Shown here piece after piece: positions 4,141-31,823 of a stretch of 35,601 nt of DNA. Position 1 is the first letter of the stretch. Each line of letters begins with the position of its first letter. A program made the translations under genes and the position numbers. The notes under the pieces are model-generated. The model was not told the origin of the DNA. It ran no database searches and saw nothing but the letters and a program-made list of their open reading frames with translations. The DNA comes from Chthonomonadaceae bacterium (lineage in GTDB: Bacteria; Armatimonadota; Chthonomonadetes; Chthonomonadales; Chthonomonadaceae), in contig DASRGZ010000223.1 of the NCBI GenBank assembly GCA_035650735.1, positions 1 to 35,601 of the forward strand. The letters run 5' to 3'.

Positions 4141-4460
4141 CGGCAGGCTAAACCCTGCCGCTGTGGGGCCTGCGGCTCGCTGCCCACCTACGTGGGCAGA
4201 GAAGACACCCGGCTTCTCCTCTCCCCTCTCCCGCAGCGTGGGAGAGGGGGAAGGGGGTGAGGGCTTCTCCTCTCTCCTTGAGAAGGAGAGGGGACGGGGG
4301 TGAGGTCAGTTGGAAGGTGAGGACAGCAACCATCCCAAGTTGGGTCACCCCCACTGCCAGGGTCGGCCCTACAATGGTTCGGGCCTCCGCCTTGCGACAC
4401 CCCTCCGCCTGACGACCCTGCGAACGCAGTGAGCGCATTAGGGAAGGGGCCGGGGGTTGG
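4141..4460. repeat. Composite palindromic repeat cluster: small hairpins, A hairpins (4221-4264, 4267-4307), a B module (4327-4346) and an A hairpin split by element C (4352-4415)
   Basis: CTCCCCTCTCCC-GCAGCGT-GGGAGAGGGG...GGGGTGAGGGC and CTGCCCAC-CTAC-GTGGGCAG are visible. The same modules recur at 6.3, 18.8, 28.1, 31.4 and 33.8 kb. Confidence 0.85.
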
Positions 4461-4461
4461 C

Positions 4462-5166
4462 ATGATGGAGTTGGATACATACGCTCAGAAGATGGAGCGT
4501 ATGCGCGCCTACTGGGCGCAGCGGCTGCCGCTGGTGACGGTGGAGATACCCATTGGCGGGCGAAACTGGCGTGTGACGGCGGTTCAGAACCAGGATGCCC
4601 TGCTGGATGCCGCCGAGCAGCTTGAGCATTTTCCGTATGGCTTCCTGCTCTGGGAGTCGGCGGTGGGGCTGGCGCGATTCCTGGCGGCCCATCCGGGGCT
4701 GGTGGCAGGGAAGCGGGTGCTGGAGCTGGGCGCAGGCGTCGGGCTGCCGGGTATGGTCGCGCAGGCGTTGGGAGCGCAGGTCTGCCAGACCGACCATCAG
4801 CAGGGCGCACTGGCGTTGGCGCAGGTCAACGCCTATCAGAACGGAGTGAGCGGCCTGACCTTCTTCCTGGCCGATTGGCGCACCTGGGCGCATGCAGAGC
4901 GTTATGACATTCTCCTCGGCGCAGACATCCTCTATGAGCGCGCCATGCATTTCTACCTGGAGTCGATCTTCCGGCGAAGTCTGGCTCCGGGTGGACAGCT
5001 GATCCTTTCCGACCCGGTACGCCCGCAGGCGATGGAGTTTGCCGCACACCTGGAGAAATCCGGCTGGCGGATCGCGCTGGAGATGCAGCTAGTCACGCTG
5101 GCGGAAGAGGGAGGCGAGGGCAAGCCGGTCGAGGTCGCCCTGCTGATAGGCGCACAGCCTTCCTGA
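4462..5166 (+). CDS. Class I SAM-dependent methyltransferase (Methyltransf_16 / protein-lysine methyltransferase-like)
   Basis: Motifs PYGFLLWESA, VLELGAGVGLPG and ILLGADILYE. Start set at ATG 4462 (or 4465); the track's N-terminal extension is repeat DNA. Confidence 0.85.
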   Translation: MMELDTYAQKMERMRAYWAQRLPLVTVEIPIGGRNWRVTAVQNQDALLDAAEQLEHFPYGFLLWESAVGLARFLAAHPGLVAGKRVLELGAGVGLPGMVAQALGAQVCQTDHQQGALALAQVNAYQNGVSGLTFFLADWRTWAHAERYDILLGADILYERAMHFYLESIFRRSLAPGGQLILSDPVRPQAMEFAAHLEKSGWRIALEMQLVTLAEEGGEGKPVEVALLIGAQPS

Positions 5167-5338
5167 GGTTGATGTGAGTACCGCAACCGCTGCAAGCGCC
5201 TTTTGCGCCTCTGTTGGTGATGAGCACGCCGCGCTCCTGAGGCCGCTTCCCTGGGGATGAGTTTACGGAACACGGGTATCCGGGCATTCGTATTGTACAG
5301 TGAGGATTAGCGAGAGGATACCTTAAGGATTTTAATCC

Positions 5339-6196
5339 ATGAATACATTCAAAACCGCGATGTTGCTGGCTGGGCTGACCGGCCTGTTTGTCGCCGTCGG
5401 CGGAGTCATCGGCGGTCGCAGCGGTATGGTAACCGCCTTCATTCTGGCGATGATCATGAACTTCGCCAGTTATTGGTTCAGCGATAAGATCGTGCTCATG
5501 GCGCAGGGCGCGCAGGAGTTGCAGCCTTCCGATGCGCCGGAGCTCTTCCGGATAGTGGAGCGGTTGACGGCGCGGGCGGGCATGCCGATGCCGCGCATCT
5601 ATGTCGTCCCTGGCGACCAGCCCAACGCCTTTGCCACCGGGCGCGACCCGGAACATGCCGCCGTCGCCGTGACCCAGAGCATTGTGGATCTGCTGACGCC
5701 TGCGGAGTTGGAGGGCGTCCTGGGGCATGAACTATCGCATGTGCGCAACCGCGACGTGCTGATCAGCACCGTGGCGGCCACGATTGCGGGCGCGGTTGGC
5801 TTCCTGGTTCAGATCGCGCGGTGGGGGATGCTGCTGGGCGGCTATGGAGGCAGGGACGACCGCGAGGGCGGCTATAACCCGATTGCCTGGCTGCTGGCGA
5901 TTATTCTGGCGCCGATTGCCGCGCTGATCATCCAGATGGCGATCTCGCGCTCTCGCGAGTTTGAGGCGGATGCCTCCGGCGCGCGGCTCAGCGGGAAGCC
6001 ATTGGCCTTGGCCAGCGCCCTGCAAAAGATCGAAGCCTATGCCCAGACGCGGCCTTTGCCGGTCAATCCCAGCTTCGCGCACCTGTATATCGTCAATCCG
6101 TTCCGCATGGAGGGGCTGATGAATCTGTTCCGGTCGCACCCTCCGACCGCCGAGCGGATCGCGCGCTTGCAGGCGATGGCCGCCCAGGCCGCCTGA
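5339..6196 (+). CDS. htpX: Zinc metalloprotease HtpX (M48)
   Basis: N-terminal transmembrane pair, PNAFATGR, HELSH (HExxH), ISRSREFEAD and SHPPTAERI. Confidence 0.95.
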   Translation: MNTFKTAMLLAGLTGLFVAVGGVIGGRSGMVTAFILAMIMNFASYWFSDKIVLMAQGAQELQPSDAPELFRIVERLTARAGMPMPRIYVVPGDQPNAFATGRDPEHAAVAVTQSIVDLLTPAELEGVLGHELSHVRNRDVLISTVAATIAGAVGFLVQIARWGMLLGGYGGRDDREGGYNPIAWLLAIILAPIAALIIQMAISRSREFEADASGARLSGKPLALASALQKIEAYAQTRPLPVNPSFAHLYIVNPFRMEGLMNLFRSHPPTAERIARLQAMAAQAA

Positions 6197-6242
6197 GACA
6201 AGCCCTACATTTCGTAGCGTCGGACGCCCCCGCGTCGCCGAC

Positions 6243-6292
6243 AGAGCCGCCGGAGGTTCCCTCTCCCTGGGAACATACCCTCCGGCGGCTCT
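6243..6292 (+). terminator. Perfect 14-bp stem hairpin between convergent htpX and gmhB (possible terminator or mRNA stabiliser)
   Basis: AGAGCCGCCGGAGG (6243-6256) pairs with CCTCCGGCGGCTCT (6279-6292). Only a short T-run follows. Confidence 0.45.
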
Positions 6293-6313: not shown

Positions 6314-6475
6314 GCCCTCACCCCCTGTCCCCCTCTCTCCCGTATAACCTAACCCCCCGGCCCCCACTGCCAGGGTCGGTGCTGCGCACGCTCGCACCAC
6401 TGCCAGGATCGGCCCTACAATGGACTGCAAGGGCCGTAACCTTGCCGACCCTGGCAGTGGGAAGGGGTAGGGGCC
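6314..6475. repeat. A-hairpin arms enclosing a head-to-head form of element C (6365-6459)
   Basis: CCCACTGCCAGGGTCGG ... CCGACCCTGGCAGTGGG forms a 17-bp inverted repeat, flanked by CCTAACCCCCCGGCC and GAAGGGGTAGGGGCC. Confidence 0.8.
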
Positions 6476-6573: not shown

Positions 6574-7139
6574 TCCTGGCTTTGCCGGCAAAGCCAATCC
6601 GCCGCGGCGGCCAGATCGGCAAAGACAAAATCCGGGTGGGGTGGGGGAAAGGTGGCCGGGTCGTACTGGCGCGTGTGGCCGGTAAGCACGAGGATGGTAC
6701 GGCAGCCGACGGCGTGCCCGGCGGCAATATCGCGCGGGCTGTCGCCGACCATGTAACTTGCGCAGAGATCCAGACCGAGATCGGCGGCGGCCTGGCGCAG
6801 CAGGCCCGGCCTGGGCTTGCGGCAATCACAGCCTTCTTCCGGGCAGTGCGGGCAGGCGTAGATGGCCGTGAGCCGTCCGCCCGCCGTCTCTATCTCGGCG
6901 CGCAGGCGGGCATGGACCGCTTCTAACTCTTCCAGCGAGAGATATCCGCGCCCGACGCCCGCCTGGTTGGTGATTACGATGACCGGCCATCCCGCCGCCG
7001 TCAGGCGGGCTACGGCCTCGGCGGCGCCTGGCAGCAGATGGAGGGCGTCCGGGCGCGTGACATACGCTCCCCCCTCCACGGTCAGCACGCCGTCTCGGTC
7101 AAGAAACACGGCGCGGCGCTCCGAACCCGCCTCACGCAC
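6570..7139 (-). CDS. gmhB: D-glycero-D-manno-heptose 1,7-bisphosphate phosphatase (HAD IIIA)
   Basis: Motifs FLDRDGV, ITNQAG, zinc-binding CPH...CDCRKP and MVGD. Overlaps the stop of gmhA. Confidence 0.85.
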   Translation of the reverse strand: MREAGSERRAVFLDRDGVLTVEGGAYVTRPDALHLLPGAAEAVARLTAAGWPVIVITNQAGVGRGYLSLEELEAVHARLRAEIETAGGRLTAIYACPHCPEEGCDCRKPRPGLLRQAAADLGLDLCASYMVGDSPRDIAAGHAVGCRTILVLTGHTRQYDPATFPPPHPDFVFADLAAAADWLCRQSQE

Positions 7140-7725
7140 GCCCGGCCTCCGCTTTAGCGCGCTCCAGCACCGTCGAGAAGAGGACGTGCAGCAGGATCAT
7201 GTGGACATCCTCGATGCGCTGCATGTTCTCGCTCGGCACGACCAGGCAGCATTGGGTTGTGTCCTTGAGCTTGCCGCCCTGGAATCCTGCCAGGCCGAAG
7301 GTCGTCGCTCCGGCTCTGTTGGCGGCTGCGATGCCGTTGATGACGTTCATGGAGTTGCCGCTGCCGCTGACGCCAATGACCACGTCGCCCGGCTCCGTCC
7401 AGCACTCCACCTGCGGCGCAAAGATGTTCTCCCAAGCCGTATCGTTGGCCCAGGCCATCATCAGCGGCGTGCAGTCCGACAGGCAGAGCGTCCGCAACGG
7501 TCTGCCCGCCTCCAGGTAGATGTTTTTCTGCAAATCATTAACAATATGGCTGACGCTGCTGCTGCTGCCGCCATTGCCCATGAGCAGAACGCGCTTGCCG
7601 TCCCGCCAGGCCGCCAGCAGCGCCTCCACCATTCGCTCCAGCTGTGCCATGTCCACCTTATTGAGCAAATCTTTGACATTATCCAGGTAGGCGGTTATAT
7701 ATGTTCTTGTCTCCAAATGCGTCAT
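7132..7725 (-). CDS. gmhA: SIS-domain phosphoheptose isomerase family protein
   Basis: Motifs GNGGS, AWAND, GDVVIGVSGSGNSMNV and QRIEDVH. Adjacent to gmhB. Confidence 0.8.
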   Translation of the reverse strand: MTHLETRTYITAYLDNVKDLLNKVDMAQLERMVEALLAAWRDGKRVLLMGNGGSSSSVSHIVNDLQKNIYLEAGRPLRTLCLSDCTPLMMAWANDTAWENIFAPQVECWTEPGDVVIGVSGSGNSMNVINGIAAANRAGATTFGLAGFQGGKLKDTTQCCLVVPSENMQRIEDVHMILLHVLFSTVLERAKAEAGRA

Positions 7726-7740
7726 ATCTTCAAGTGGCCT

Positions 7741-9423
7741 CTAAATCTCCATGATGACCGGGACGACGACCGGACGGCGGTTGGTGCGCTTGCGCAGGTA
7801 GCGCGCGACCGTATCGTGGACGGTGACGCGCACGGTGTCCAAATCCGAGCCTTCCGTATAGTTAAGCTCCTCCAGCGCCTGGGTGACGCGCTCCGCCGCG
7901 CCCTCGAAAAGCTCGCTGCTGTCCTCCGGGTGCAGGAAGCCGCGCGAGAGCAGGTCCGGCCCGGCCAGGACTTCGCCCGTGCTGCGATCCATGCTGACCG
8001 TGACGATCACGGTGCCATCCTGGGCCAGATGCCGCCGGTCGCGCAGCACCACGTCGCTCACGCCGCCCGCGCTGATGCCGTCCACCAGCACGCTGCCGTG
8101 CGGCACCGTCATCGCCGCGCGGCGGACGCCCTCCGCATCCATCTCCAGCATCTGCCCGACCTCAAACGTCAGGATGCCGTCCGGCGCAAAGCCCATATCC
8201 AGCGCCATCTGCGTGTAGGCGTGGTAGTGGCGCGGCTCCCCGTGATAGGGGGCTACGTACTCAGGCCGGGTCAGGTTGATCATCATCTTGAGCTCTTCCT
8301 GGTAGGCATGGCCGGAGACGTGGACGTTCTGGATCAGGTCATAGACGACGTTAGCGCCCAGCCGGAAGATGCGGTTGACGACGCGCCAGATCATGTCCTC
8401 GTTGCCGGGAATGGGCGTCGAGGAGAGAATGACCGTATCGCTCGGCTCGATCTGGACTTTGGCCGTCTCGTCACGGCTCATGCGGGTCAGGCCCGCCAGC
8501 GGCTCACCCTGGCTGCCCGTGGTCAGGATGACGATCTCGACGGGATGGTATTCGCCGATGTCCTCGACGCGGACGCGCTGCGCGTCGCTGATGCGCAGAT
8601 AGCCAAGCGAGCGGGCCGTATCAATGTTCTGGACCATACTGCGCCCAAAGACCGCCACTTTGCGCCCGTAGCGGGCGGCCACGTCGAAGACCGTCTGGAC
8701 GCGATGCAGGTTGGAGCCGAACGTCGCTACGATCACGCGGCCCATGCTCTCGCGCATGAAACGATCAAAGACGGGCACCAGCGACCGCTCCGAAGGGCAC
8801 CAGCCCTTCCGCTCGACGTTGACGCTGTCCGAGATCAGCAGGCGGACGCCCTCATCGCCCAGCTGCGCGAAGCGGGACGTATCGAAGAGGCGGTTATCAA
8901 TCGGGGTCTGATCGATCTTGAAGTCGCTGGTATGGACGACCGTGCCGACCGGGGAGCGAATGGCGAGGCTAGCGGCGTCAGGTATGGAGTGGGTAACGTG
9001 AATGGCCTCCACCGAGAGCGGCCCAAACGCGACGGCTCCCTCTGCCGGGTACTCCACAAACTCGGTGCTGCCCGCCAGCCCGTGCTCGGCCAGTTTGGCG
9101 CGCACCATGCCCAGCGTCAGGCGCGTACCGTAGATGGGGACGGGCAGTTGCTTGAGGACGTAGGGCAGCGCGCCGATATGGTCCTCATGGCCGTGCGTCA
9201 GGCAGATGGCCTTGACCTGTTCGCGGCGTTCCAGCAGGTAGGTAATATCCGGAATAATGAGATCGACGCCCGGCTGCTCCTCGTTGGGAAACATCACGCC
9301 GCAATCCACGACGAGAATCGTGTCCTCGTAGTGGAAGGCGAGCATATTCTTGCCGACCTCGCCGCTGCCTCCCAGCGAAATGATATGCAGCTTGCCGTTC
9401 GTGCTGTTCTCTACATCACTCAA
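7741..9423 (-). CDS. rnj: Ribonuclease J
   Basis: Motifs LGGSGEVGKN, THGHEDHIG, VTHSIPD, TTGSQGEP, HVSGHA and YHGE, plus C-terminal RRPVVVPVIMEI. Confidence 0.95.
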   Translation of the reverse strand: MSDVENSTNGKLHIISLGGSGEVGKNMLAFHYEDTILVVDCGVMFPNEEQPGVDLIIPDITYLLERREQVKAICLTHGHEDHIGALPYVLKQLPVPIYGTRLTLGMVRAKLAEHGLAGSTEFVEYPAEGAVAFGPLSVEAIHVTHSIPDAASLAIRSPVGTVVHTSDFKIDQTPIDNRLFDTSRFAQLGDEGVRLLISDSVNVERKGWCPSERSLVPVFDRFMRESMGRVIVATFGSNLHRVQTVFDVAARYGRKVAVFGRSMVQNIDTARSLGYLRISDAQRVRVEDIGEYHPVEIVILTTGSQGEPLAGLTRMSRDETAKVQIEPSDTVILSSTPIPGNEDMIWRVVNRIFRLGANVVYDLIQNVHVSGHAYQEELKMMINLTRPEYVAPYHGEPRHYHAYTQMALDMGFAPDGILTFEVGQMLEMDAEGVRRAAMTVPHGSVLVDGISAGGVSDVVLRDRRHLAQDGTVIVTVSMDRSTGEVLAGPDLLSRGFLHPEDSSELFEGAAERVTQALEELNYTEGSDLDTVRVTVHDTVARYLRKRTNRRPVVVPVIMEI

Positions 9424-9453
9424 GTGACAACCCCTAAAACAAAAGCAACAACC

Positions 9454-9602
9454 TCAACAGGATGAACAGGATTAGACAGGATTTACAGGATGAAGACAAA
9501 GACAGAAATATAGGGCTTGTATGGGTCATAGAGACAGAAGCAGAGATTGGGTAGGTTTTAGAAATCCTGTTTAATCCTGTAAAATCCTGTTCATCCTGTT
9601 GA
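9454..9602. repeat. Fold-back element with tandem ACAGGAT units in inverted arms
   Basis: TCAACAGGATGAACAGGATT (9454-9473) is the exact reverse complement of 9583-9602. Each arm has four ACAGGAT units. Confidence 0.85.
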
Positions 9603-9628
9603 AAGGTTTTTCTAGCGCAGCGGGTGGT

Positions 9629-10528
9629 TTAGATTAAACCGTAGTCGGCCAGAGCGGTGCGCAGGATGCTGCGCTCCTTATCGTTGGCTTCGACCAGGGG
9701 CAGGCGCACGCCGCCGACATCCAGGCCCAGCATATTCAGGCCGGCCTTCACGGGCACGGGGCTGGGGGTCGTGGGCTGGAAGCAGGCGCGGACAATCGGC
9801 AGCATTTTCGCGTTCAGGCAGGCCGCCTCGCCCGTGCGTCCGGCAAAGAAAGCCGTATGCATCGCCTTCATGTCCTTGCCGACCAGGTGTGCGGTCACGC
9901 TGACCACGCCGACTCCGCCGATGGCGAGCAGGGGCAGGGTCAGGCCGTCCTCGCCGCTATAGACCGCAAAATCCCCCGGCGCGCTGGCTATGATCTCCGC
10001 CGCCTGCATCAGATTCCCGGACGCCTCCTTGATGGCGACGATGTTGGGCACGTCGCGGGCCAGGCGCAAGGTGGTCGCCGCGTCCATGTTCTGCGCGGTG
10101 CGCGGGGGCACGTTGTAGAGCATACAGGGCAGATTCGGCACGCTTTCGGCGATGGCGCGGAAGTGCTGATACAGGCCCTCCTGCGAGGGCTTATTGTAGG
10201 GAGGGACTACCAGCAGCGCCCCATCCACGCCGATCTCCGCCGCTTCCTGGGTGATCGTGATGCTGCTGGCCGTGTCGTAGTTGCTGGTTCCGGCGATGAT
10301 TTTAGCTCGCCCGCCCGCCGTCTCCGTGACCAAGCGGAACAGGCGCAGCTTCTCCTCGTGCGTCAGGGTCGGGGATTCGCCGGTGGTGCCGCAGACCACG
10401 AGACCGTCGGAGCCGTTGTCCAGCAGGTGGTTAACCAGGCGCACGGTCGCCGGCTCGTTGATCTGGCCCTGGGCGTCGAACGGCGTCACCATCGCCGTCA
10501 ACACCTGTCCAAAAATAGCCTTGCCCAT
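9629..10528 (-). CDS. dapA: 4-hydroxy-tetrahydrodipicolinate synthase
   Basis: Motifs TAMVTPF, CGTTGESPTL, PPYNKP, LYNVPPRT and IVAIKEASG (Schiff-base Lys). Lies between asd and rnj. Confidence 0.95.
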   Translation of the reverse strand: MGKAIFGQVLTAMVTPFDAQGQINEPATVRLVNHLLDNGSDGLVVCGTTGESPTLTHEEKLRLFRLVTETAGGRAKIIAGTSNYDTASSITITQEAAEIGVDGALLVVPPYNKPSQEGLYQHFRAIAESVPNLPCMLYNVPPRTAQNMDAATTLRLARDVPNIVAIKEASGNLMQAAEIIASAPGDFAVYSGEDGLTLPLLAIGGVGVVSVTAHLVGKDMKAMHTAFFAGRTGEAACLNAKMLPIVRACFQPTTPSPVPVKAGLNMLGLDVGGVRLPLVEANDKERSILRTALADYGLI

Positions 10529-10551
10529 CGCACCCTTCCTCCTAAAACTTA

Positions 10552-10653
10552 TTTAGACAGGATAAACAGGATTTACTGGATTAGAGCTAGAGGGAGAAGC
10601 AGAGCTTGTGCTGATTTGTAGCAATCCGGTTAATCCCGTTAATCCTGTCTAAA
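10552..10653. repeat. Second, more degenerate ACAGGAT fold-back element
   Basis: TTTAGACAGGAT (10552-10563) pairs with ATCCTGTCTAAA (10642-10653). Each arm has three units. Confidence 0.8.
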
Positions 10654-10655
10654 AG

Positions 10656-11675
10656 TTAAACCGTGACGAGGTGCATCCACTTCTCGGCGATCTGAATGGC
10701 GTTGAGGGCGGCGCCTTTGAGGATCTGGTCGCCGGAGACGAACAGATCGAGGGCGTCATCGTTGGAGAGGTCGTAGCGCAGGCGGCCCACCAGCACCTCG
10801 TCGCGCCCGCTGGCCTCTAGAGGCATCGGGAAGTGGTTGGCCTCGCGGTCGTCCACAATAGCGACGCCGGGGAACGTGCTTAGCGCCTCGCGAACTGCCG
10901 CCAGCGAGGGCCGCTGGCCCGGCGCGAATTCGATATTGACGCTCTCGGAGTGGGCGCGCACCACCGGCACGCGCACGCAGGTAGCCGTGATCTTGAGCGT
11001 CGGGTCATGTAGGATCTTGCGCGACTCGTAGATCATCTTGCGCTCTTCCTCATTGTAGCCCGTCTCATCTATCTTGGAGTTATGGGCAAAGAGGTTGAAC
11101 GCAATGGGATGCGGGAAGACCTGGGGGGTAATGGGCCGCTCATGCAGAACGGCGTGCGTCTGATCAATAAGCTCCTGCATGGCCTGTGCGCCCGCGCCGC
11201 TGGCGGCCTGGTAGGTGGAGACGACGATACGACGAATGGGAGCCAGTTGGCGCAGCGGGGCCACGGCCATGAGCAGGATGATGGTGGAGCAGTTGGGATT
11301 GGCGATGATGCCGTGCTGGGCGGCGAGGTCCTCCGGGTTGATCTCCGGGACGACCAGCGGCACGTCCGGGGCCATGCGGAAGGCCGACGAGTTATCAATC
11401 ACGACGGCTCCGGCGGCCACGGCGGCGGGCGCAAACTCGCGGCTGCGGGAGGCCCCGGCCGAGAAGAAGGCGATGTCCATATCCGCAAACGAGTCGGCGG
11501 TGAGCTGCTCGACGGTATACGGCTTATTCCGTAACGTCAGCACACGCCCTGCCGAGCGTTCTGAGGCCAGCAGGCGCAGCGCGCCAAGCGGAAATTCGCG
11601 CGTCTCCAACAGATGCAAAAACTCGGTGCCAACCGCGCCCGTCGCGCCGACGATGGCGACATTATAGGTCTTCAT
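10656..11675 (-). CDS. asd: Aspartate-semialdehyde dehydrogenase
   Basis: Motifs VGATGAVG, IDNSSAFRM, IANPNCST (catalytic Cys), STYQAASGAG, TCVRVPV and KGAALNA. Confidence 0.96.
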   Translation of the reverse strand: MKTYNVAIVGATGAVGTEFLHLLETREFPLGALRLLASERSAGRVLTLRNKPYTVEQLTADSFADMDIAFFSAGASRSREFAPAAVAAGAVVIDNSSAFRMAPDVPLVVPEINPEDLAAQHGIIANPNCSTIILLMAVAPLRQLAPIRRIVVSTYQAASGAGAQAMQELIDQTHAVLHERPITPQVFPHPIAFNLFAHNSKIDETGYNEEERKMIYESRKILHDPTLKITATCVRVPVVRAHSESVNIEFAPGQRPSLAAVREALSTFPGVAIVDDREANHFPMPLEASGRDEVLVGRLRYDLSNDDALDLFVSGDQILKGAALNAIQIAEKWMHLVTV

Positions 11676-11775
11676 GGGAGGAACTCGCTTTCCTGAAGGT
11701 CATCAAGTTTAAGCATAAGTGTACCGCATCGCTTGCCCTCCCGTCAACCGTAAAAATGCCCGGCAGCCTGCCAGG

Positions 11776-12408
11776 TCAGCCGCCACCGGAGCCAGACTTC
11801 AGCGGCTCGCCGTGCCAGCGCTCTAAGGCCCAATCGCGGATCTGGCAGGCTACGGCGGAGACCGGCGTTTGCGTGGTATCCAGGGTCCGCAGCGGTGGAT
11901 CAAAGGCCGTTTCGGCGTGCTCCAGGAGCCAATGCGCGAACTGCTGCTGCTCGGCAAGGAAGGCTTCCGTACAGCCCCGCCAGGCAGGCCGCGCCCGCAA
12001 GCGCGCCGCACGCGTGGGGTCGTCGCAGTGCAGGTTGAGGTAGTAGACTTGGCGGAAAAAGGGCCGGTGATCACATCGGTCTATATCTTCCGGCAGCATC
12101 ATGCCGCACAGGAGCGTCGGGCGACCGCTCTGGGCGATGCTGTGGGCGATGCGCAGCCAGTTATTGCGCACCTGCTGCCAGTCCGCGCCCCAGATAACAT
12201 CGGTCTCGAAGATTTCCCATTCGGGAAGGAGGCGGCGCAGTTCCCGGACGACCGCAGTTTTGCCCGCGCCGCTGGCCCCGGTCACGATGAACAGCGGCAG
12301 GATGCGCATCGGCTCTCTGTGACCGCAATCGGGGCAGCGGATGGCCTGCGCGTCCGTATCCACAAGAGGCTGAATATAGCCCCCGCAACCCTCGCATACG
12401 ATAGCCAT
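11776..12408 (-). CDS. P-loop nucleoside/nucleotide kinase-like protein with an N-terminal zinc ribbon
   Basis: CEGC and CPDC pairs, Walker A GASGAGKT, and a lid-like RAARLRAR segment. Confidence 0.7.
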   Translation of the reverse strand: MAIVCEGCGGYIQPLVDTDAQAIRCPDCGHREPMRILPLFIVTGASGAGKTAVVRELRRLLPEWEIFETDVIWGADWQQVRNNWLRIAHSIAQSGRPTLLCGMMLPEDIDRCDHRPFFRQVYYLNLHCDDPTRAARLRARPAWRGCTEAFLAEQQQFAHWLLEHAETAFDPPLRTLDTTQTPVSAVACQIRDWALERWHGEPLKSGSGGG

Positions 12409-12524
12409 CGCTTTTACACTTTATCCGAATCGGGCATGATCACCGTCAGTATGGACGATCCCGCGATCCCGGAGGGAGAAAGCTGACGGATAGGGTATAC
12501 TACCGGATCGGAGGTGCCTCTCCT

Positions 12525-13088
12525 ATGTCCAGCATGGAAAACACAGACCCCGCGCCGCTCCTGCCCGACCTGCTGGCGCCCGGTCTCGACGTCATCTTCG
12601 TCGGCGCAGCGCCGAGCCTATCCGCCGCAGCGAGCGGGCACTATTACGCCGGGCCAACGAACAGATTCTGGCTTCTGCTTTACCAGGCGGGGTTTACGCC
12701 CCGCCAGTTCCGAGCGGAGGAGGATGGGGAGGTCCTCCGATACGGGATCGGGCTGACGGGCCTCTTCAAGCACATCGCCTCCAGCGCCAACCACCTGCTG
12801 CCGCCGCCGACCGAGACGCAGCGAGCGCACCTGCGGGAGAAGCTGCTGGCCCACGCGCCGGGGTTCGTGTGCTTCAACGGCAAGGACGTATACGCCCTGG
12901 CAACCGGCCGCCTCTGCATGGATTGGGGCGAGCAGGAAGAGCGGATCGGAGAGGCCCGCGTCTACGTCGTCCACAGCTCCAGCGCCCGTGCCGATTTTTG
13001 GGGCCGCGAGCGCCTGGCCCTCTATAAGGAGCTGAAGGAACTGATCGGTGGATGGCGCGCATGCCAGAGATCCGAACTACACTCTTGA
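12525..13088 (+). CDS. mug: Mismatch-specific uracil-DNA glycosylase (MUG/TDG family)
   Basis: LPDLLAPGLDVIFVGAAPS...HYYAGPTNRFW...YGIGLT, FNGK and SSSAR. GGAGGTG RBS upstream. Confidence 0.85.
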   Translation: MSSMENTDPAPLLPDLLAPGLDVIFVGAAPSLSAAASGHYYAGPTNRFWLLLYQAGFTPRQFRAEEDGEVLRYGIGLTGLFKHIASSANHLLPPPTETQRAHLREKLLAHAPGFVCFNGKDVYALATGRLCMDWGEQEERIGEARVYVVHSSSARADFWGRERLALYKELKELIGGWRACQRSELHS

Positions 13089-13107
13089 GAGATCGGTAAA
13101 TAGAGTC

Positions 13108-14466
13108 ATGGATCGTCGTCAGTTTCTGCTCTCTCTTGCCCTCCTGGGCACGCCGCTTACCAAACCGAGGAACCGGCGGCGTGCCGGAACACAGAACGTC
13201 GCGTTGCCCCCGCTAACCCTCTCTCCGCCGCCCGGCAGCTACACAGGGGAGGCCCAACGGCTCACGGCCTTGATCTTCGGGCGCTTCTGGGACGCCAACG
13301 TGGGAATGTTTCGGGCGCCCGTCCGCAGCGCCGAGACGGTAGACAGCGACCCCCCGCACCAGAACGGCTACACCTTCTGGCCTTCGCTGCTGGCGTTCCA
13401 TACCCTCGTTGAAGGCGAAAAGATCCGCCGGGGCCGGTACAAAGCCCGCATGGCCCAGGTCTACAGGGGGCTGGAGCAGTACTACGACCCCCAGAAGCAT
13501 GCCTACAATGCCTGGCGGCACTTTCCTGGCAACAACGACACCTATTATGATGACAACGCCTGGGGCGTGACCACGCTCGTCGCGGCCTATGAAGCGACGG
13601 GGGACGCCGCCTATCGAGACCGGGCACAGCAGGTCATGGAGGGCTTCGTCTCTGGGGGCTGGGACCCAACGGACACCCCCGGCGGCGTGCGCTGGGGAAC
13701 CGACCCGACCAAGCCGCATACGGCCGACAAGACCGCCTCCGCAACGGCGGGAGCCGCCCTGGCCGCGTTGGGGCTGGCGCGGCTGGGTATCCACCGAGCC
13801 TCCAACATCGCCTGGGCGCAGAGCGCCCTCACCTGGCTCCAGCGGCATCTTCAGGACAAAGACGGCTTGATCCGCGACGGCTTGCAGGCCCCCACCTGGA
13901 CGGTGATGCCGACGAAATGGACCTACAATACCGGCGTCCCTATCCGCGCCTACGTGGAACACTACCGCCTCACCCACGATCCGGCTAGCCTCGAGGCAGC
14001 CAAGCGCCTGGCCCGCGCAGCCACGGATCGCAACAAAGCGCTCTACGACCAGCTCGTTCGTGACCCGGAGCGCCGGTTCTTCTACGACAGCTCGTTTTTC
14101 GTGCATTACCTGGCCGACGGCCTGCTGGCGTTGTATCGAGTGACCCAGGATGCCGCCCTGCTGGACGAGGTGAAGCGTAACGCCAACTACGCCTATGCCT
14201 ACTTGCGTGATCCCACCGACGGCCTCTATTTTCGCAACTTTCGGCTCTGGCGGATCGGAGAAGCGCAGTACCAGGCATGGCGGCGGCTGACCGGCCAGGA
14301 GCACCGCCGGGAGCCCGACGCTGCGGAGCGCTCCCAAGCGGACAAAGACACGCGCCTTCCGGTGTCCGCGCGCCCTTTAGTCAAGACGCTTCTGGCCAAC
14401 GCCGGCTGTGCCCGGCTGTTCTGGCTGCTGGCCCAGGTCCAGACGGTCCCGCATCCTTCCTCTTGA
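13108..14466 (+). CDS. Tat-exported glycoside hydrolase family 76 (alpha-1,6-mannanase-like)
   Basis: Twin-arginine signal MDRRQFLL at ATG 13108, catalytic YYDDNAW, GGVRW and WTYNTG. Confidence 0.85.
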   Translation: MDRRQFLLSLALLGTPLTKPRNRRRAGTQNVALPPLTLSPPPGSYTGEAQRLTALIFGRFWDANVGMFRAPVRSAETVDSDPPHQNGYTFWPSLLAFHTLVEGEKIRRGRYKARMAQVYRGLEQYYDPQKHAYNAWRHFPGNNDTYYDDNAWGVTTLVAAYEATGDAAYRDRAQQVMEGFVSGGWDPTDTPGGVRWGTDPTKPHTADKTASATAGAALAALGLARLGIHRASNIAWAQSALTWLQRHLQDKDGLIRDGLQAPTWTVMPTKWTYNTGVPIRAYVEHYRLTHDPASLEAAKRLARAATDRNKALYDQLVRDPERRFFYDSSFFVHYLADGLLALYRVTQDAALLDEVKRNANYAYAYLRDPTDGLYFRNFRLWRIGEAQYQAWRRLTGQEHRREPDAAERSQADKDTRLPVSARPLVKTLLANAGCARLFWLLAQVQTVPHPSS

Positions 14467-14492
14467 GGCTCCCGAAGGTGACTAAGAGCGCA

Positions 14493-14548
14493 CTCCCTCT
14501 ACTGTGCAGGGAGAGGGCCGGGGTGAGGGGAGAGCCGCACTGCCAGGG
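14493..14548. repeat. Single degenerate A hairpin plus an isolated element-C left end
   Basis: CTCCCTCT...AGGGAGAGGGCCGGGGTGAGGGG, followed by CACTGCCAGGG at 14538-14548. Confidence 0.6.
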
Positions 14549-14578
14549 TTTGTTAGGGACTCTAAGCAATCGCCGCTT

Positions 14579-15625
14579 TCACAGCGCTTCGGCAACTTCG
14601 AAGAGCACTTTCCCGGATTGCCCGCTCTCCATCACAGCGAAGGCTTCCTCCGCCTGTTCCAGCGCAAACCGATGGGTGATGAGCCGCTCGAAGGGCAGAT
14701 TGTACTCGACCGTCCGCTGGATCAGCGCAGGAAAGTAGCGCAGCGGCGTCGCCGCAATCCCGATCAGGCGTATCTGCCCTCCAATGAAAAATCGGTCCGC
14801 GCTTAGGGTGAGCGGTTCGGAACCTAATCCTGCAAAGGCCACCCGCCCCCGCGTCGCTGCCATCTCCAGCGCCTGATGCCGCGTCTGCGCCAGCCCCACG
14901 CACTCGGCCACCACCTCACAGCCCCGCCCGCCCGACCAACGCCGAACCGCAGCGACCGGGTCTTCTCCGGTCGCGTCTACCGCGCAGTCCAGCCCCAGGG
15001 ACAGTGCCTGTTCCAATCGACGGGAGACGACATCTATGCCCACCGTTCGCACGCCCAGCGACTTGGCCAGGATCAGCAGACACTGTCCCACCGGCCCCAG
15101 GCCCACAATCGCCAGCCGGTCTTCGCCACCGAGGTCGGCTTCCCGGAGAGCCGTGTAGGCGGTGCCGCCCGCGCAGGTCAGCAGGGTAGCCGTTTCCAGA
15201 GACATCGCCTCCGGCAGGACGAAGACATTGCCGGCGGGCCAGACGATAGCGGTGGCATCACAGCCGTGCCGCTTCCAGCCAAGCCCAGAGACGCCCTGCT
15301 CGCAGGCGGTATTATAGCCCTGCCGGCACCAGGCGCAGCGACCGCAGCCCAGGACACCCGCCAGCAGGACGCGGCTGCCCACCTTCAGGCCGGTGACGCC
15401 CTCGCCGAGAGCGGCCACCCATCCGGCGGGCTCATGGCCGACGATGAGGGGCGAGCCATCGGCCAGCCGCTCAACATACTCGGCAGGCGCACGATACTTA
15501 TGGATGTCGGTGCCGCAGACGGCGGCCCGTGCGATCTTGATCAGCACCTCGCCTGGCCCCGGTTGCGGATCGGGAAACGCTTCCAACCGAAGCTGCCTGT
15601 CTCCCAGAAAAACCAGCCCTTGCAT
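14579..15625 (-). CDS. Zinc-dependent medium-chain alcohol/sugar dehydrogenase
   Basis: Motifs VCGTDIH, GHEPAG, CGRCAWC...C and GLGPVG. Start moved to ATG 15625 after an AAGGAG RBS. Confidence 0.9.
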   Translation of the reverse strand: MQGLVFLGDRQLRLEAFPDPQPGPGEVLIKIARAAVCGTDIHKYRAPAEYVERLADGSPLIVGHEPAGWVAALGEGVTGLKVGSRVLLAGVLGCGRCAWCRQGYNTACEQGVSGLGWKRHGCDATAIVWPAGNVFVLPEAMSLETATLLTCAGGTAYTALREADLGGEDRLAIVGLGPVGQCLLILAKSLGVRTVGIDVVSRRLEQALSLGLDCAVDATGEDPVAAVRRWSGGRGCEVVAECVGLAQTRHQALEMAATRGRVAFAGLGSEPLTLSADRFFIGGQIRLIGIAATPLRYFPALIQRTVEYNLPFERLITHRFALEQAEEAFAVMESGQSGKVLFEVAEAL

Positions 15626-15707
15626 GCTGTCCGCTCCTTGCGCGCTATCAAAGCCGTTCGGGACGTGAGTGAAGCGGTCCGAGCGGCGGCTCCGCCCTGG
15701 ATTTGGC

Positions 15708-16814
15708 TCATCGCCCGCTGGGGAACAGTTCGCCCACGTCCATTCCCAGGTCCCGCTCTGGCCCGGCATCCCGCTCATGCAGGATTAAGCGGCCTCCCGT
15801 GTAGGTGAGACGATCAACGCCCCGGTAATCTCGGGGAATCTTAAAGAGGAAGCAGGCAAAAGTCTTGGAGGTCGTCTCACCGGCATCCAGATACTCATAG
15901 AGCGAGCGCCCGAATATCCGTCCCTTAGCCACCAGGACGGAGAAGGGCTGGTGCAATCCTGTGGTGCCGAATTCCAGGCCGCGGGCCGCAGGCTTGCCCT
16001 TCTCTACGTTCCGCCAGGCACTGAACCAGGGATATTCCGCGGACTTCCAGAGGTAGCCGATCAGCAAGCCTCGTGAGGGATTGCAGGCGGCGACCCAGCC
16101 ATATTCCTCGTCAATCGTATAGGAAACCACGCTCGGATTGGCGTCGTTGGTCAAATAGCGCATGTTCACCGGCTGGCCATCCTGGCGCGCTTCCGGCCAG
16201 TAAACGGCTGGCTCTTCGGGATTAGGCAAAGGGCTACTCTGCATGAAGCCTCGGCGCGCATTGGCATCTACGACGGTATGTTCGTCCAGAAACGGCGGGC
16301 CAATCGTCGGATGCTGCACCATATTGAAGAGGCGTCCCAGCTTGTTAGCGTTGGTGACTTCCTCCCTGACGATAAAGAAAGCATCGGTAACGGATAACTG
16401 GATCCGGCGTTTAACTTTCAATCCTGCCAACGGCAGGGTCGCGGTCATTTCGGCCTGAACTTTCCCGTCTCTCTCTATCGGCGCCTGCACCACTTGCCAC
16501 TCGACATGGGCGGCTTCGCCATGAAAGGGCATGCCATTCTTCGCTTCCGCCTCCGAGGGAGCGCCCCAGCGATCTAGACAGAGGAAATGCCCCATCGGGT
16601 GGGGAGCCATCGACTCATCTACTGCCCCCCATTCGAGCGGATTGAGCCCCTGGCTGCGGAGGTGGAAATTGGTGAACGATCCACCGCCGATGTCCACAAC
16701 GAGTTGAGCCGTCTGGCCTTCCAGCACCAGGGAGCGCCGGCCTTTGATAATCGGCTGGGCCTTGCTGAAGGGAACGGCATAGAGAAACGTGACCAGGAGC
16801 ATAAACGTCACCAT
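15708..16814 (-). CDS. Secreted hypothetical protein, possibly galactose-mutarotase-like beta-sandwich
   Basis: Signal peptide, MPFHGEA, NMVQHPTIG and RGLEFGT resemble aldose-epimerase-fold motifs. GGGAGG RBS upstream. Confidence 0.6.
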   Translation of the reverse strand: MVTFMLLVTFLYAVPFSKAQPIIKGRRSLVLEGQTAQLVVDIGGGSFTNFHLRSQGLNPLEWGAVDESMAPHPMGHFLCLDRWGAPSEAEAKNGMPFHGEAAHVEWQVVQAPIERDGKVQAEMTATLPLAGLKVKRRIQLSVTDAFFIVREEVTNANKLGRLFNMVQHPTIGPPFLDEHTVVDANARRGFMQSSPLPNPEEPAVYWPEARQDGQPVNMRYLTNDANPSVVSYTIDEEYGWVAACNPSRGLLIGYLWKSAEYPWFSAWRNVEKGKPAARGLEFGTTGLHQPFSVLVAKGRIFGRSLYEYLDAGETTSKTFACFLFKIPRDYRGVDRLTYTGGRLILHERDAGPERDLGMDVGELFPSGR

Positions 16815-16901
16815 AGGTCATTTCCTCCCGCGTAGAGTAGGCGAATAGGTCGGGGGTATCCAGATATCCAATTGCTCCTGCTTCAAACCTAGTACCGAGG
16901 C

Positions 16902-17270: not shown

Positions 17271-17273
17271 GGC

Positions 17274-18703: not shown

Positions 18704-19122
18704 GTAGCGGGCGAATCAATTCGCGGCAACAAAGGCACAAAGTCGCCCTACGGCGACTCCATCCTCCCCTCTCCTTGCAAAGGAGAGGGGCGGGGGGTGA
18801 GGTCTCTCCCCTCTCCCTCAGCGTGGATCGCAAGGCGGAGGGGTGTCGCAAGGCAGAGCCGTGTCGCGAGGCGGAGGCAGGGGCCGTAACCCTGCCGACC
18901 CTTGCAGTCCGTTGAGCGGCGTCCCTTGCAGTCCGTTGAGCGCCGACCCTAGCAGTGGGGACAGGGGGTGAGGGCAGAACCCGCGCAGGCGGGTTTTGTG
19001 CCTTGGTTGCTGCGGCTGGTAATCCCTCCCAACGGTGTGGACGTATCTCCTCAGCAGCAGGCTGCGTGAGATTGATCCACACGGCTGGGAGTGTCTACCC
19101 TGCGGCTTGAGCCGCCCGAAAA
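18704..19122 (+). repeat. GTAG-capped fold-back element D carrying two A hairpins, element C (18827-18957) and a MITE
   Basis: Left arm GTAGCGGGCGAATCAATTCGCGGCAACAAAGGCACAAAGTC and right arm GAACCCGCGCAGGCGGGTTTTGTGCCTTGGTTGCTGC...TGAGCCGCCCGAAAA match the reverse complement of 28006-28160. Confidence 0.9.
19018..19099. mobile_element. 82-bp MITE with IS1-like termini and an 8-bp target-site duplication
   Basis: CTGCGGCT flanks it at 19010-19017 and 19100-19107. The 24-bp ends GGTAATCCCTCCCAACGGTGTGGA and GGTAGACACTCCCAGCCGTGTGGA (rc) match at 19/24. The homologous site at 28 kb is empty. Confidence 0.8.
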
Positions 19123-19202
19123 CAAACAGAAGGACACTGACACAACACCTGGCAACAAGGATCTATCATCAGCAGGCGCACAGAGAGAGGGCCTATCGTA
19201 CA

Positions 19203-20012: not shown

Positions 20013-20044
20013 AGAACGGTTAAAACTCGATTGTCATTCTCGTG

Positions 20045-20270
20045 CTCTGGCCTGTGGTACGCCGAGAAACCTTTCCAGGAAGATTCTGCGCTGCGCTAAC
20101 ATTCCAGACGAGCAGGGTGTTTCTCGTTCCGACGGCACCGTGAAACTTTTCCAGGAAGATTCTGTGCTGCATCCAGAGCGCCGACCAGGCCAGAGGTCTC
20201 TTCAAGCAACGAAAAACACCGATGGCACGGACCACGGGCCACTATTCAAGCCATAAAAGACGCCGATGGC
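20045..20270. repeat. Repeat-rich intercistronic region with two direct-repeat pairs and an enclosing inverted repeat
   Basis: A 29-bp pair at 20066-20094/20142-20170 (2 mismatches), a 26-bp pair at 20201-20226/20245-20270 (21/26), and a 10-bp inverted repeat at 20045-20054/20186-20195. Confidence 0.7.
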
Positions 20271-20280
20271 GGAGCGGCGG

Positions 20281-21201
20281 TCAGGGCCGCTCCACAAACT
20301 GCCACTTGCGCTTGTTGAAATACCAGTACCCGCCCCAGGCGATGAGCAGGGAAAGAAGACATGCTCCGGCAAACGTCCCCCAATCCATCGGCAGCGGGTT
20401 GCCCGTCAGGCCCTGCGTGCCGCGAGGCACCGGCTCCAGGATCGTCTTGCGATAGGCGTTGATGATGGCGGTGATAGGGTTGAGCATGTAGAGCTTATAG
20501 AGCCAGGGATGCGCCTGCATCACGTGCGAATAGTAGACACTATCGGCAGGATAGAGCACCGGCAACAGGAAAAACAGCAGATTGAACAGGGTCTGTAAGA
20601 TAAACTTCACATCCTCATAGAAGACGTTGAGCGCCGACACCCACAGCGACATTCCCAGCACAAAGCAGAAGAGAACGAGCGTAATGAAGGGAAACCAGGC
20701 CAGGGTAGCCAGGATGGGAATGTGGATGTCCAGCAGGCGGGCGACCACAAAGAAGGCGGCGAAGTAGACCGCCCACCCCAGCATCATATGGATGAAGTTG
20801 CTGAGGACGTAGGAGAGCGGGATCACCTCGCGCGGCATGTAGACCTTTTTGATGATCGGGTAGTTGACCAGCAGGGACATACTCGAATCGAGCATGGCCG
20901 TGGAGATGAAGGTCCAGGGAATGAGCCCGCACAACAGGTAGGCCGAGTAGTTATCCGCCGGGACTTTGAGCACGCTGCGGAAGACATACGAGTAGACGAG
21001 CACCTGCAACAGGGGAGGCACGATAGACCAGAAGAAGCCGAGCGCGGAGTTTTTGTAGCGCACTTTCAGTTCCCGCGCGACCAATTGGCGCAGCAACTCC
21101 CGATAACGCCACAGTTCCTCTAGTTCGGCGCGCAGGGAGGTCCTCTCAGACGTTGGGCGTGTCCTGATAAAATCGGCTGCCAGACTCATGCGTTTAGGCA
21201 T
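20281..21201 (-). CDS. ABC transporter permease, Wzm/TagG type
   Basis: LWRYRELL...RELKVRYKNSALGFFW, IIKKVYMPRE, PVLYP and LNPIT, with multiple transmembrane helices. Alternative start at 21189. Confidence 0.92.
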   Translation of the reverse strand: MPKRMSLAADFIRTRPTSERTSLRAELEELWRYRELLRQLVARELKVRYKNSALGFFWSIVPPLLQVLVYSYVFRSVLKVPADNYSAYLLCGLIPWTFISTAMLDSSMSLLVNYPIIKKVYMPREVIPLSYVLSNFIHMMLGWAVYFAAFFVVARLLDIHIPILATLAWFPFITLVLFCFVLGMSLWVSALNVFYEDVKFILQTLFNLLFFLLPVLYPADSVYYSHVMQAHPWLYKLYMLNPITAIINAYRKTILEPVPRGTQGLTGNPLPMDWGTFAGACLLSLLIAWGGYWYFNKRKWQFVERP

Positions 21202-21206
21202 TCCCC

Positions 21207-21455
21207 TCAGACGTTGGACGCATCTTCGTCGCCGTGATCGTTATCGTCAAGAGTAAGTTCCTCCACTTCTTCGGGGCGGGCGGGTTCGAGCAGGGCCAGC
21301 AGGGCCGAGCGGGGAATCAGCACTTTGCGCTTTCCGGCAATGCGGAAGGCTTGCAGCCGTCCCTGGCGGATATACGACCGGATGCTCGATTGACTGACCT
21401 GCAAATACTGAGCCGCCTGTTCGACGGTGAGCAGGTCCCTGGCTTCCATCTCCAT
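21207..21455 (-). CDS. Excisionase-family (HTH_17) DNA-binding protein
   Basis: LLTVEQAAQYLQVSQSSIRSYIRQGRLQAFRIAG followed by an acidic tail. AAGAGGGG RBS before ATG 21455. Confidence 0.85.
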   Translation of the reverse strand: MEMEARDLLTVEQAAQYLQVSQSSIRSYIRQGRLQAFRIAGKRKVLIPRSALLALLEPARPEEVEELTLDDNDHGDEDASNV

Positions 21456-29943: not shown

Positions 29944-30172
29944 GGCCTCTCCTTGTCACAGGGGTATAGAAACAGGATGCCGTGGAGGCGAACTCCCGCC
30001 TCCGTAGTGTAACACAGCGCGGCAGCGCCTGTCAAACGAAGAACGATGCGCCAGGGCCATAGCCTTTTCCTTTCTGCGCGTCTATGCCTGTCCGCTCAGC
30101 GGAGAGAGGCAATGCGGTGCGTGCAATCGCCCCGCGGTGCGCTTGCTGATAATAAAGAAATCCACACAGGGG

Positions 30173-30201
30173 TTGAAAGTCTAGCCAGATCGCGCCATAA
30201 T
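30173..30201 (+). promoter_or_regulatory. Sigma70-type promoter candidate
   Basis: TTGAAA-17 bp-CATAAT upstream of the 30244 ORF. Confidence 0.5.
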
Positions 30202-30243
30202 GCAAATACCGGGCATTAACTCCACAGTGGAAGATCGCTTGTC

Positions 30244-31401
30244 ATGAGAGCCCTGCCGCCTTTGTGCCGGCGGCCTGCCGAAAGGAGCCTGATCGTGTGC
30301 CATACCCTTGCCTGCGTCTATCGCACGCTCCTGGGAGTACCGTGTCGGCCTCGCGCCATTTTGCTTTGCCTACTGTTGCCAATGGTGGGGATGGCGTTGT
30401 GCGGCTGTGGCGATGACAAAGACGAGCTCAAGCCCCTCAAGATCGACCGCATGGCTCCGGACCCGCAGTTTCTCGCCGGGACCAGCCCTGTGCCCACGTA
30501 CACCGAGCATCCGGCTCCCGTGCAGCCGACCGAGGCGCTCAAGAACGTGGTGCCGATTGCCGACCCCAATAGTGGCGTCGTCAGCACTCCGATAGCCCCT
30601 GCCGGGGCCGACCTTGATATGGGCGCTCAGGACAGGGATTACCTGCGTAAGGTAGATGTGTACTGGATGCTCCGGTGGGTGCGCAAAGAGCTGCTGACCG
30701 GCCCGCCGCCGCCGAACATGGCCGAAGCCCTCGCCAAAATTCGCAAGAGTCATGCCGATACCAGGCGAGACGCCGATTACGATTTGACTGAAGAGGCCCT
30801 CCACCACCTGGAGAAGGGGTGGGAGTTCTATCAGGCCATTCAGATCTTGCAGGCGGCGCACGTGACCACACGCCTGCTGCCCTGGGGCGCGGGCGGGGAT
30901 GCAATGAAACGGTTTATTGAGAACGGTGGCGTCGGGTTCGGCGCCAAGCGAACCAGCTCCGCGACAGACCTGGCCCAACGTGACGGAGAGGATGAAGACG
31001 ATTTGGGAAGCGCGGTTGGCACGCGGCCTCTGGTGTCTGAGGCGCTGACCCCGATCCAGCAGCAGGCCATGGACATCATGCGGCGCTACGCCGATCTTTA
31101 CCATGCTTCCCCGGAGCAGATGATGCGCCAGGAGCTTCGAGCGGCCATTCAGAAGATCAACGACTTGCGGGAGAGCCTGCGCCGGCACCCGTCCGTCGTG
31201 CGCCATCCCGGCTTGAACAATCCCGCCGAGAAGAGCGACGACGAGTCCAGCACAGAACCGAGCGGCAAAATCAACAGCAGCATGGCCGAACGGGGCGTGC
31301 GCGATGTCGTGCCTATCCCGCGCGTGGGCAGCGATACCTCTGATTTAGACGACGAAACGCCGCACGGCCCGAATCCGTTCAATTCTTCCAACGATCAGTA
31401 G
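30244..31401 (+). CDS. Hypothetical lipoprotein (true start probably downstream of 30244)
   Basis: A hydrophobic stretch ends in lipobox-like ALCGC-G, followed by a Pro-rich linker, a helical core and an acidic tail. Confidence 0.6.
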   Translation: MRALPPLCRRPAERSLIVCHTLACVYRTLLGVPCRPRAILLCLLLPMVGMALCGCGDDKDELKPLKIDRMAPDPQFLAGTSPVPTYTEHPAPVQPTEALKNVVPIADPNSGVVSTPIAPAGADLDMGAQDRDYLRKVDVYWMLRWVRKELLTGPPPPNMAEALAKIRKSHADTRRDADYDLTEEALHHLEKGWEFYQAIQILQAAHVTTRLLPWGAGGDAMKRFIENGGVGFGAKRTSSATDLAQRDGEDEDDLGSAVGTRPLVSEALTPIQQQAMDIMRRYADLYHASPEQMMRQELRAAIQKINDLRESLRRHPSVVRHPGLNNPAEKSDDESSTEPSGKINSSMAERGVRDVVPIPRVGSDTSDLDDETPHGPNPFNSSNDQ

Positions 31402-31410
31402 CGAGCTTGC

Positions 31411-31823
31411 CTAACCCCCAGCTTGTGGCCCTCCCCCCCGGCCCACTGCTAGGGTCGGGGCTACAACGGACTGCCAGGGACGCCGCTCAACGGTTCGCGG
31501 CTCTGCCTTGCGACACCCCTCCGCCTGGCGCCCCCCGGCGCTGCGGCAGAGGGGAGCGGCCCCCACCCCCTTCCCACTGCTAGGGGCGGCGCTGCAACGG
31601 TTCGCCCCACTGCAAGGGTCGGCAAGGTTACGGCCCTTGCCTCCGCCTTGCGACACCTGGCGACAGCCCTCCGCCTAGCGATCCCCAACAACAGGGGAGG
31701 GGAGAGGAAAGCGTTGGCTTCTGCTTCCCCTTCTCCCTGCAAGGGAGAAGGGCCGGGGATGAGGGCGGCCCTACACCCTACACCCTATCCCCTACACCCT
31801 ACACAAGGAGACGGGGTGAGGTC
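31411..31823. repeat. Composite cluster: two A hairpins each split by element C (31444-31530, 31575-31682), an intact A hairpin, and a CCCTACA heptamer run (31769-31803)
   Basis: Module sequences are shared with 4352-4415, 6365-6459 and 18827-18957. There are five heptamer units, one being the variant CCCTATC. Confidence 0.9.

Follow-up and report, generated by a model that had tools for sequence, protein, structure and literature searches.

Background

The small dispersed repeats SDR1-8 of Nostoc and its relatives, described by Elhai et al. in 2008, are said to form hairpins with compensatory changes and to nest in their own copies; their length reportedly ranges over ~20-27 nt. Published accounts put cyanobacterial SDRs at ~20 nt and describe precise insertion of SDR5 inside the HIP1 repeat (PMC4390886, PMC2884548, PMC3116915; here and below, citations refer to the accessible portions of each text). 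Among repetitive extragenic palindromic (REP) sequences, some lie in other palindromes, and their CGTC tags vary to TGTC or CCTC (PMC3733652, PMC3116915, PMC3333891, PMC8266576, PMC6006769). TnpA-REP cuts single-stranded DNA close to a bulged hairpin, shows little sequence specificity and performs strand transfer (PMC3333891, PMC8266576), and the origin and spread of REP-like repeats are still open (PMC8266576, PMC3333891). The subject here is C, a repeat present five times in a window of 35,601 nt (the whole stretch of DNA analysed, contig DASRGZ010000223.1 of Chthonomonadaceae bacterium assembly GCA_035650735.1). All copies of C derive from one hairpin unit, C0, typically 44-45 nt long with fixed ends. 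It is somewhat probable that C0 is a mobile hairpin element of 44-45 bases, which replaces two bases in hairpin repeats and in its own copies and is moved in trans by a Y1/HUH-type enzyme.

Results and discussion

One hairpin unit underlies all copies of C

The source genome (6.52 Mb in 224 contigs, 63% GC, 97.6% complete; the window is its contig C223) contains the strict left-end word of C 772 times, and a full-unit pattern gave 162 matches in it versus 0 for the reversed control. Peeling of 479 loci genome-wide released 793 C0 units; 426 intact units measured 44-46 nt, of which 218 were distinct. C0 is mostly intergenic, with 24 of 441 blocks falling within a strong predicted open reading frame (ORF). 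Both of its ends read CC-TNGC, resembling the loop of the R flank hairpin, one of the host repeats described below.

The unit has an outer stem of 6 bp (positions 4-9 with 38-43), followed by a conserved internal loop, and an inner stem of 5 bp (positions 13-17 with 29-33) whose AAYGRTT-like apex is conserved in most subtypes. Its terminal repeats amount to just the 6-bp subterminal stem. The inner stem occurs in approximately 10 sequence subtypes and in chimeric forms, and its inner four pairs were perfect in 166 of the 218 distinct units, versus 27.6 in shuffles (maximum 44). In a 29-row alignment, the rows of which were picked for diversity and also supplied the structure, 95.9% of cells were paired, with 46 two-sided changes; none of 500 shuffles matched this, and slid controls reached 31-58%. 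The inner stem covaries, compensatory changes keeping it paired across subtypes. A metagenome search with a pattern that left the inner stem unconstrained gave 36 loci, 15 of them the source genome itself; the 21 others yielded 18 distinct units, 17 of which had a perfect inner stem, in 10 different sequences.

Divergent C0 units were also seen in seemingly unique, non-repeat flanks at two loci (L037, at ~33268 of contig C35 in the source genome, and L059). One unit of this pair lies directly upstream of a gene that, judged by eye, probably encodes an Lrp/AsnC-type regulator.

Units nest in one another at fixed positions

The initial annotation described the interiors of C as modules used in different order and number. 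The shared words are indeed present, but their order is constant: left arms, then one intact unit, then right arms. When the innermost unit was peeled away and two placeholder bases were restored, an intact outer unit was rebuilt at 285 junctions, with nesting at positions 22 (28 junctions), 26 (106), 30 (41), 34 (96), 27 (5) and 33 (9) of the outer C0; the first four account for 271 of the 285. Full resolution by peeling was achieved for 309 of the 479 loci.

Block statistics were drawn from 357 complete blocks, the 84 of 441 blocks in which the left end was missed being left out. Of these, 171 consist of a single unit and 77 are balanced nests; surplus arms occur on the right in 74 and on the left in 35. 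Right arms measured 10, 14, 18 or 22 nt in all 263 cases, and the two arms of an innermost pair totalled 42-44 nt in 111 of 133 (shuffles 43, maximum 63). The apparent vocabulary is accounted for by one hairpin nesting at fixed sites, and the modules are the two arms of the inner-stem subtypes. A layout like that of pneumococcal BOX elements, with an internal module in tandem between fixed ends, was not found in these blocks; the arms are complementary, and in deeper stacks they close last-in-first-out. Self-nesting with 2-nt loss was also seen in contigs of other organisms (L095, L110, L117), and we hold with high confidence that C is a self-nesting micro-element.

Shuffling of short modules into new orders by template switching, as first suggested, would find a place for the 330 distinct sequences among 394 blocks, for the 109 of 357 complete blocks that are unbalanced and for window copy 2, a fold-back fusion. 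It is nevertheless highly improbable given the fixed order, the quantised and complementary arms and the fact that every 'module' corresponds to one arm of a C0 subtype already known. As the main process, combinatorial reshuffling is largely refuted.

Two bases are lost and none duplicated

An apparent empty site in the window had led to the proposal that about 2 nt are replaced without target duplication. The empty site at 33943 was confirmed (the TT is 33954-33955), and filled and empty sites were compared on paralogues genome-wide. Exactly 2 nt were lost at 94 of the 116 junctions with an empty paralogue, 3 nt at 10 and none at 4, which upholds the proposal; the net gain per C0 insertion is 43 nt. 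The lost pair at the 94 junctions was TT (32), TC (29), CT (21), CC (6) or another (6), a pyrimidine pair in 88. No target-site duplication, the trait of a classical miniature inverted-repeat transposable element (MITE), was found at the 116 junctions compared, and with 2-nt loss in 94 of them identity with a classical MITE was rejected. The junction method detects duplications where they are present, since an 82-nt MITE of the same genome, used as positive control, gave 8-9-nt duplications in 56 of 69 copies.

The next two bases after the junction were often altered (G to A 40, C to T 19), 70 of 75 changes being transitions. Among 863 right ends, the two bases 3' of C0 were CA in 415, TC in 143, GG in 81, CC in 80, CT in 57 and CG in 12; on the reverse strand the foot of C0 most often reads TGTC, and CGTC itself is rare. 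One relative (G001) has a lineage that retains CG at the right flank; therefore, the CA change is not obligate. At loop sites C0 is placed more precisely at its right end than at its left.

Restriction-site avoidance was rejected as the cause of the CG to CA change, as the observed/expected ratio of CGACG is just 0.88. Separately, CGATCG is strongly avoided genome-wide (observed/expected 0.089), which suggests that a restriction system recognises it.

The five copies in the window

All five copies of the initial annotation were confirmed, no end moving by more than 1 nt, at 4353-4415 (+), 6366-6458, 18828-18956 (-), 31445-31531 (+) and 31576-31681 (+). Their parts and hosts, with two further A repeats, are as follows.

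4224-4263, + strand: uninterrupted A repeat fitting the relaxed BoxC/TM-ECO consensus (consensus from PMC4666352)
4342-4458, + strand: host A-type (BoxC-like) hairpin split by copy 1, from sequence (compare the empty site at 33943)
4353-4397, + strand: copy 1, intact 45-nt C0 unit (covariance-model match 4353-4399)
4398-4415, + strand: copy 1, surplus 18-nt right arm, the outer unit of which has no left arm
6366-6423, + strand: copy 2, two nested left arms of 33 nt and 25 nt
6424-6458, - strand: copy 2, inverted partial C0 (starting at 6458 on the - strand); host A continues on the - strand
18828-18956, - strand: copy 3, balanced triple nest in host A, with arms 24 + 24, core 18908-18864 and arms 18 + 18
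31445-31531, + strand: copy 4, balanced double nest in host A, with left arm 25, 44-nt core 31470-31513 and right arm 18
31576-31681, + strand: copy 5 in host A, with left arm 33, core 31609-31653, right arm 10 and a surplus 18-nt right arm
33943-33975, + strand: empty host A site; TT at 33954-33955 is the pair replaced by C0 at paralogous sites

Copy 2 is atypical: its left arms are joined head-to-head to the inverted partial C0 via a 7-nt shared word, presumably by a fusion event.

Adjoining copy 3, a Q-type repeat carries the 82-nt MITE at 19018-19099, which is bounded by GGTA...TACC and has a target duplication of 8 nt; the source genome holds 69 full copies. Short ACAGGAT-type repeats form inverted arrays at 9454-9602 and 10552-10653, around a dapA-like gene.

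C0 occupies several families of host repeat

C had been thought to sit only inside A hairpins. This proved too narrow: left flanks of the 357 complete blocks were A in 176, R in 51, P in 45, P2 in 40, T in 13, S in 9 and Q in 6 (host labels are our own), so that 164 fall in repeat families other than A and 17 are unclassified. The broader proposal of a non-autonomous, repeat-targeting element is supported. A flank 12-mer occurring at least 10 times was present at 403 of 441 blocks, compared with 25% of random positions. Left and right hosts agreed in 295 of 321 classified blocks (101 when shuffled) and, with P and T counted as one, in 61 of 69 and 24 of 28 unbalanced blocks. This agreement on both sides argues against crossovers or misjoins.

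The likelihood that misassembly of a collapsed repeat produced the mosaics is close to negligible. A C word does lie at 63 of 448 contig ends, and the runs compared are contigs, not reads, in which whole blocks are not phased. Besides the agreement of hosts across blocks, a 97-nt contig from run X1 reads identically across the junction at 31609 in copy 5, copy 3 is tiled by 100%-identical contig pieces from runs X3 and X5, two separately named assemblies that may share reads (L102 and L116) agree fully over 4 kb at one nested locus, and nesting recurs in other organisms.

Host A fits the BoxC/TM-ECO consensus, which the genome matches 5 times in strict form and 127 times in relaxed form, including at window 4224. 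Each of the motifs P, Q, R, S and T adjoins short Y1 genes in the source genome or its relatives, usually as a pair, and P2 is a small hairpin within these flanks; six of the seven host classes are flanks of short Y1 (HUH) genes. In one relative (G010), 7 of 7 C0 copies sit at the same TT of one repeat, the empty form of which occurs in three Y1 loci of that genome. Sites lie in stems, loops and bulges, which rules out one structural position shared by all targets. The occupied sites form at least a dozen unrelated classes with identical 45-nt boundaries.

Copying and distribution

At least 16 repeat-spacer-repeat scars, each with a 25-38-nt duplication and a 35-42-nt spacer, overlap C blocks in the source genome (contigs C27, C40, C59, C105, C107, C120, C182 and others); eleven are copies of one scar. 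The list is incomplete, since the finder missed the CRISPR array on contig C93. The scars resemble off-target Cas1-Cas2 spacer insertions, and the source genome has a cas1 gene. A single scar with a 35-nt spacer within C0 recurs at 14 places on the contigs, in hosts A and P; its distinct far-left flanks number 7 and its distinct far-right ones 8. It is therefore a one-off mark that was copied into several hosts, in blocks spanning left end to right end.

A CRISPR array lies on contig C93 (L070, ~7000-21300), beside cas2, cas1 and other cas-like genes that by eye are type I-B-like and type III-like. Its 30-nt repeat is unrelated to C0, so that both identity of C0 with the CRISPR repeat of the source genome and origin from it were rejected.

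With a covariance model, C0 was detected in 4 of 42 genomes of the family: the source genome, G001 (9), G010 (7) and G019 (2). The copy shown for G019 is of the source-genome barcode type and stands at the end of a contig, so that misbinning is possible. No match to the C0 pattern was found in 400 other genomes of the phylum (a sample without G001, G010 and G019), and a viral scan gave 1 match, which lacked the inner stem. Among the matches listed in a scan of all genomes there were 9 loci, 5 of which, in other phyla, look like chance. Word depth on the copies was 200-400x single-copy depth in four public runs from three studies, one of them possibly the source.

Search for an enzyme

The statement that the window encodes no enzyme for C stands, none being found among 31 ORFs (NCBIfam) and 14 ORFs (Pfam). 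In the draft genome there were 0 matches to an IS110-type gene (PF01548) and 0 to an IS91-type Y2 gene (PF04986), for which the control search was also silent. GIY-YIG and DUF559 matches occurred solely in frames of 618 and 1561 aa, respectively, and neither was taken as the enzyme. Inspection by eye of 98 genes bounded on either side by repeats gave no candidate. Nor was an autonomous long copy of C seen: by eye, among the matches listed, no left/right end pair flanked a long ORF (70 orphan left and 112 orphan right ends). The source genome does have two short IS200-like Y1 genes (L071 and L072, contig C166), flanked by inverted hairpin repeats, as well as an IS605-type remnant.

An RNA-mediated route, in which a transcript of the hairpin would be inserted through target-primed reverse transcription with deletion of a few target bases, is improbable. 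R2 retrotransposons make small target deletions, the structure of C0 is kept by compensatory change, and its right end is the more exact at loop sites. RNA-mediated copying has also been proposed for yeast GC42 clusters (PMC4478555). However, no reverse transcriptase match (RVT_1, PF00078) was found in the 97.6%-complete draft genome of 224 contigs, no Rfam family matched C0 at gathering score (ten weak matches were far below cut-off) and there is no 5'-truncation spectrum, arms breaking solely at nesting sites.

A possible mechanism

In the mechanism that we propose, C0 would move as single-stranded DNA by means of a cut-and-rejoin enzyme of Y1/HUH type encoded elsewhere in the genome. Each site class would be founded by an end-specific insertion. 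Later copying would start at any of the left ends of a nested donor and stop at any of its right ends, or would proceed through gene conversion among copies; this would account for surplus-arm blocks and chimeric stems. There is a weak indication that the transferred strand is the reverse of that read here, since surplus right arms outnumber left ones (74 versus 35) and changes at the right-end flank are nearly all transitions. Two points favour a Y1/HUH enzyme acting in trans: Y1 flanks make up six of the seven host classes, and TnpA-REP handles bulged single-stranded hairpins. The likeness of the C0 ends to the loop of the R flank hairpin adds another hint; assignment of such an enzyme as the mover is tentative.

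The same self-nesting unit might instead be moved by another protein, or by host repair or recombination at extruded hairpins (nick, strand invasion, copy and flap trimming), Y1 flanks being struck merely as abundant hairpins. Half of the blocks lie in BoxC-like repeats without a Y1 link, C0 flanks no Y1 gene, the right flank is often overwritten by transitions, as in co-conversion, chimeric inner stems exist, and loss of 2 nt is compatible with two nicks or trimming. This alternative is rather unlikely: the same 45-nt boundaries in at least a dozen unrelated site classes are unexpected from plain homology-driven repair, and the 98 repeat-bounded genes inspected by eye gave no candidate.

Several observations weigh against movement of C0 by a Y1/HUH enzyme. 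Both short Y1 genes of the source genome look damaged, one reading HVP for HUH (the second His is gone) and the other frameshifted. By covariance-model search C0 flanked 0 of 32 Y1 loci, sampled from 6 genomes and including 30 of the 38 listed matches of relatives; host A likewise lay beside 0 of the 32, and Y1 genes are plentiful in relatives without C0 (8 in G002 and 11 in G033). No invariant guide tetranucleotide was found beside the 863 right ends. To our knowledge, HUH insertion, as by IS608, loses no target bases, so that the 2-nt loss needs an extra step; known HUH chemistry does not account for this loss or for the BoxC-like host. Folding is uneven, outer pair 6-41 being Watson-Crick in only 48% (27% shuffled), and copy 1 folds like its shuffles (z = -0.2 to -0.4; -2.0 to -2.6 for the copy 5 core). 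The C0 counts cover kin copies, not separate events. An empty paralogue was found for 116 of 416 distinct junctions and none for 300; these partners are paralogues, and no orthologous site was seen in both filled and empty form.

C0 could even be a parasite of parasites, a single-stranded hairpin that hijacks the cut sites of domesticated Y1 transposases, or a hairpin-specific recombinase, and substitutes two target bases. Although this is unlikely, C0 would then be the best-documented example from an undescribed but widespread class of micro-elements that nest in themselves, with an insertion chemistry apart from both duplication-making and footprint-free transposition. C0 offers hundreds of base-exact junctions, empty and filled hosts, a nested time order and a natural barcode, and its relatives carry intact candidate Y1 proteins. 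The system could show whether 45 bases of hairpin suffice as a mobile unit and by what mechanism insertion with two-base substitution proceeds.

Comparison with known systems

No description of C0 was found in the literature searched, which mostly excluded subscription papers. Like REP, REPIN and bacterial interspersed mosaic elements, with their REP-associated (RAYT) and terminal inverted repeat-associated (TIRYT) tyrosine transposases, C0 is an imperfect hairpin that occurs in high copy number between genes and has a conserved, bulge-like loop. Unlike them it has no fixed GTAG/CGTC tag (even CA flanks only 415 of 863 right ends), its two-tier stem is longer, it forms no doublet round a Y1 gene of its own, it nests in itself and it loses target bases. 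Identity with a GTAG/CGTC-tagged REP was rejected, as tests for the tag and for a cognate Y1 gene failed (C0 at 0 of 32 Y1 loci).

The BoxC, PIT or TM-ECO triplex repeat corresponds to host A, not to C, and the accessible text of its description mentions no insertion element within BoxC (PMC4666352). Pneumococcal BOX (PMC3049150) resembles C in its variable length, fixed outer ends and the insertion of repeats in one another, but BOX varies through its tandem boxB array and has transposon-like terminal repeats, whereas C varies by nesting of whole units. Yeast GC42 (PMC4478555) is likewise a GC-rich, structured mobile unit, of ~42 nt, with flank substitutions and merging of units. In contrast to C0, which loses target bases and has a variable inner stem and conserved loops, it shows AG/ACT target duplications, conserved stems and variable loops.

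C0 is also like the SDRs, as these are reported, in that it inserts precisely in other repeats and in itself and that its structure is kept by compensatory change. It differs in its length (44-46 nt, compared with a reported ~20-27 nt), in belonging to a Chthonomonadaceae-type lineage, in replacing 2 nt and in occupying both the flanks of Y1 genes and BoxC-like repeats.

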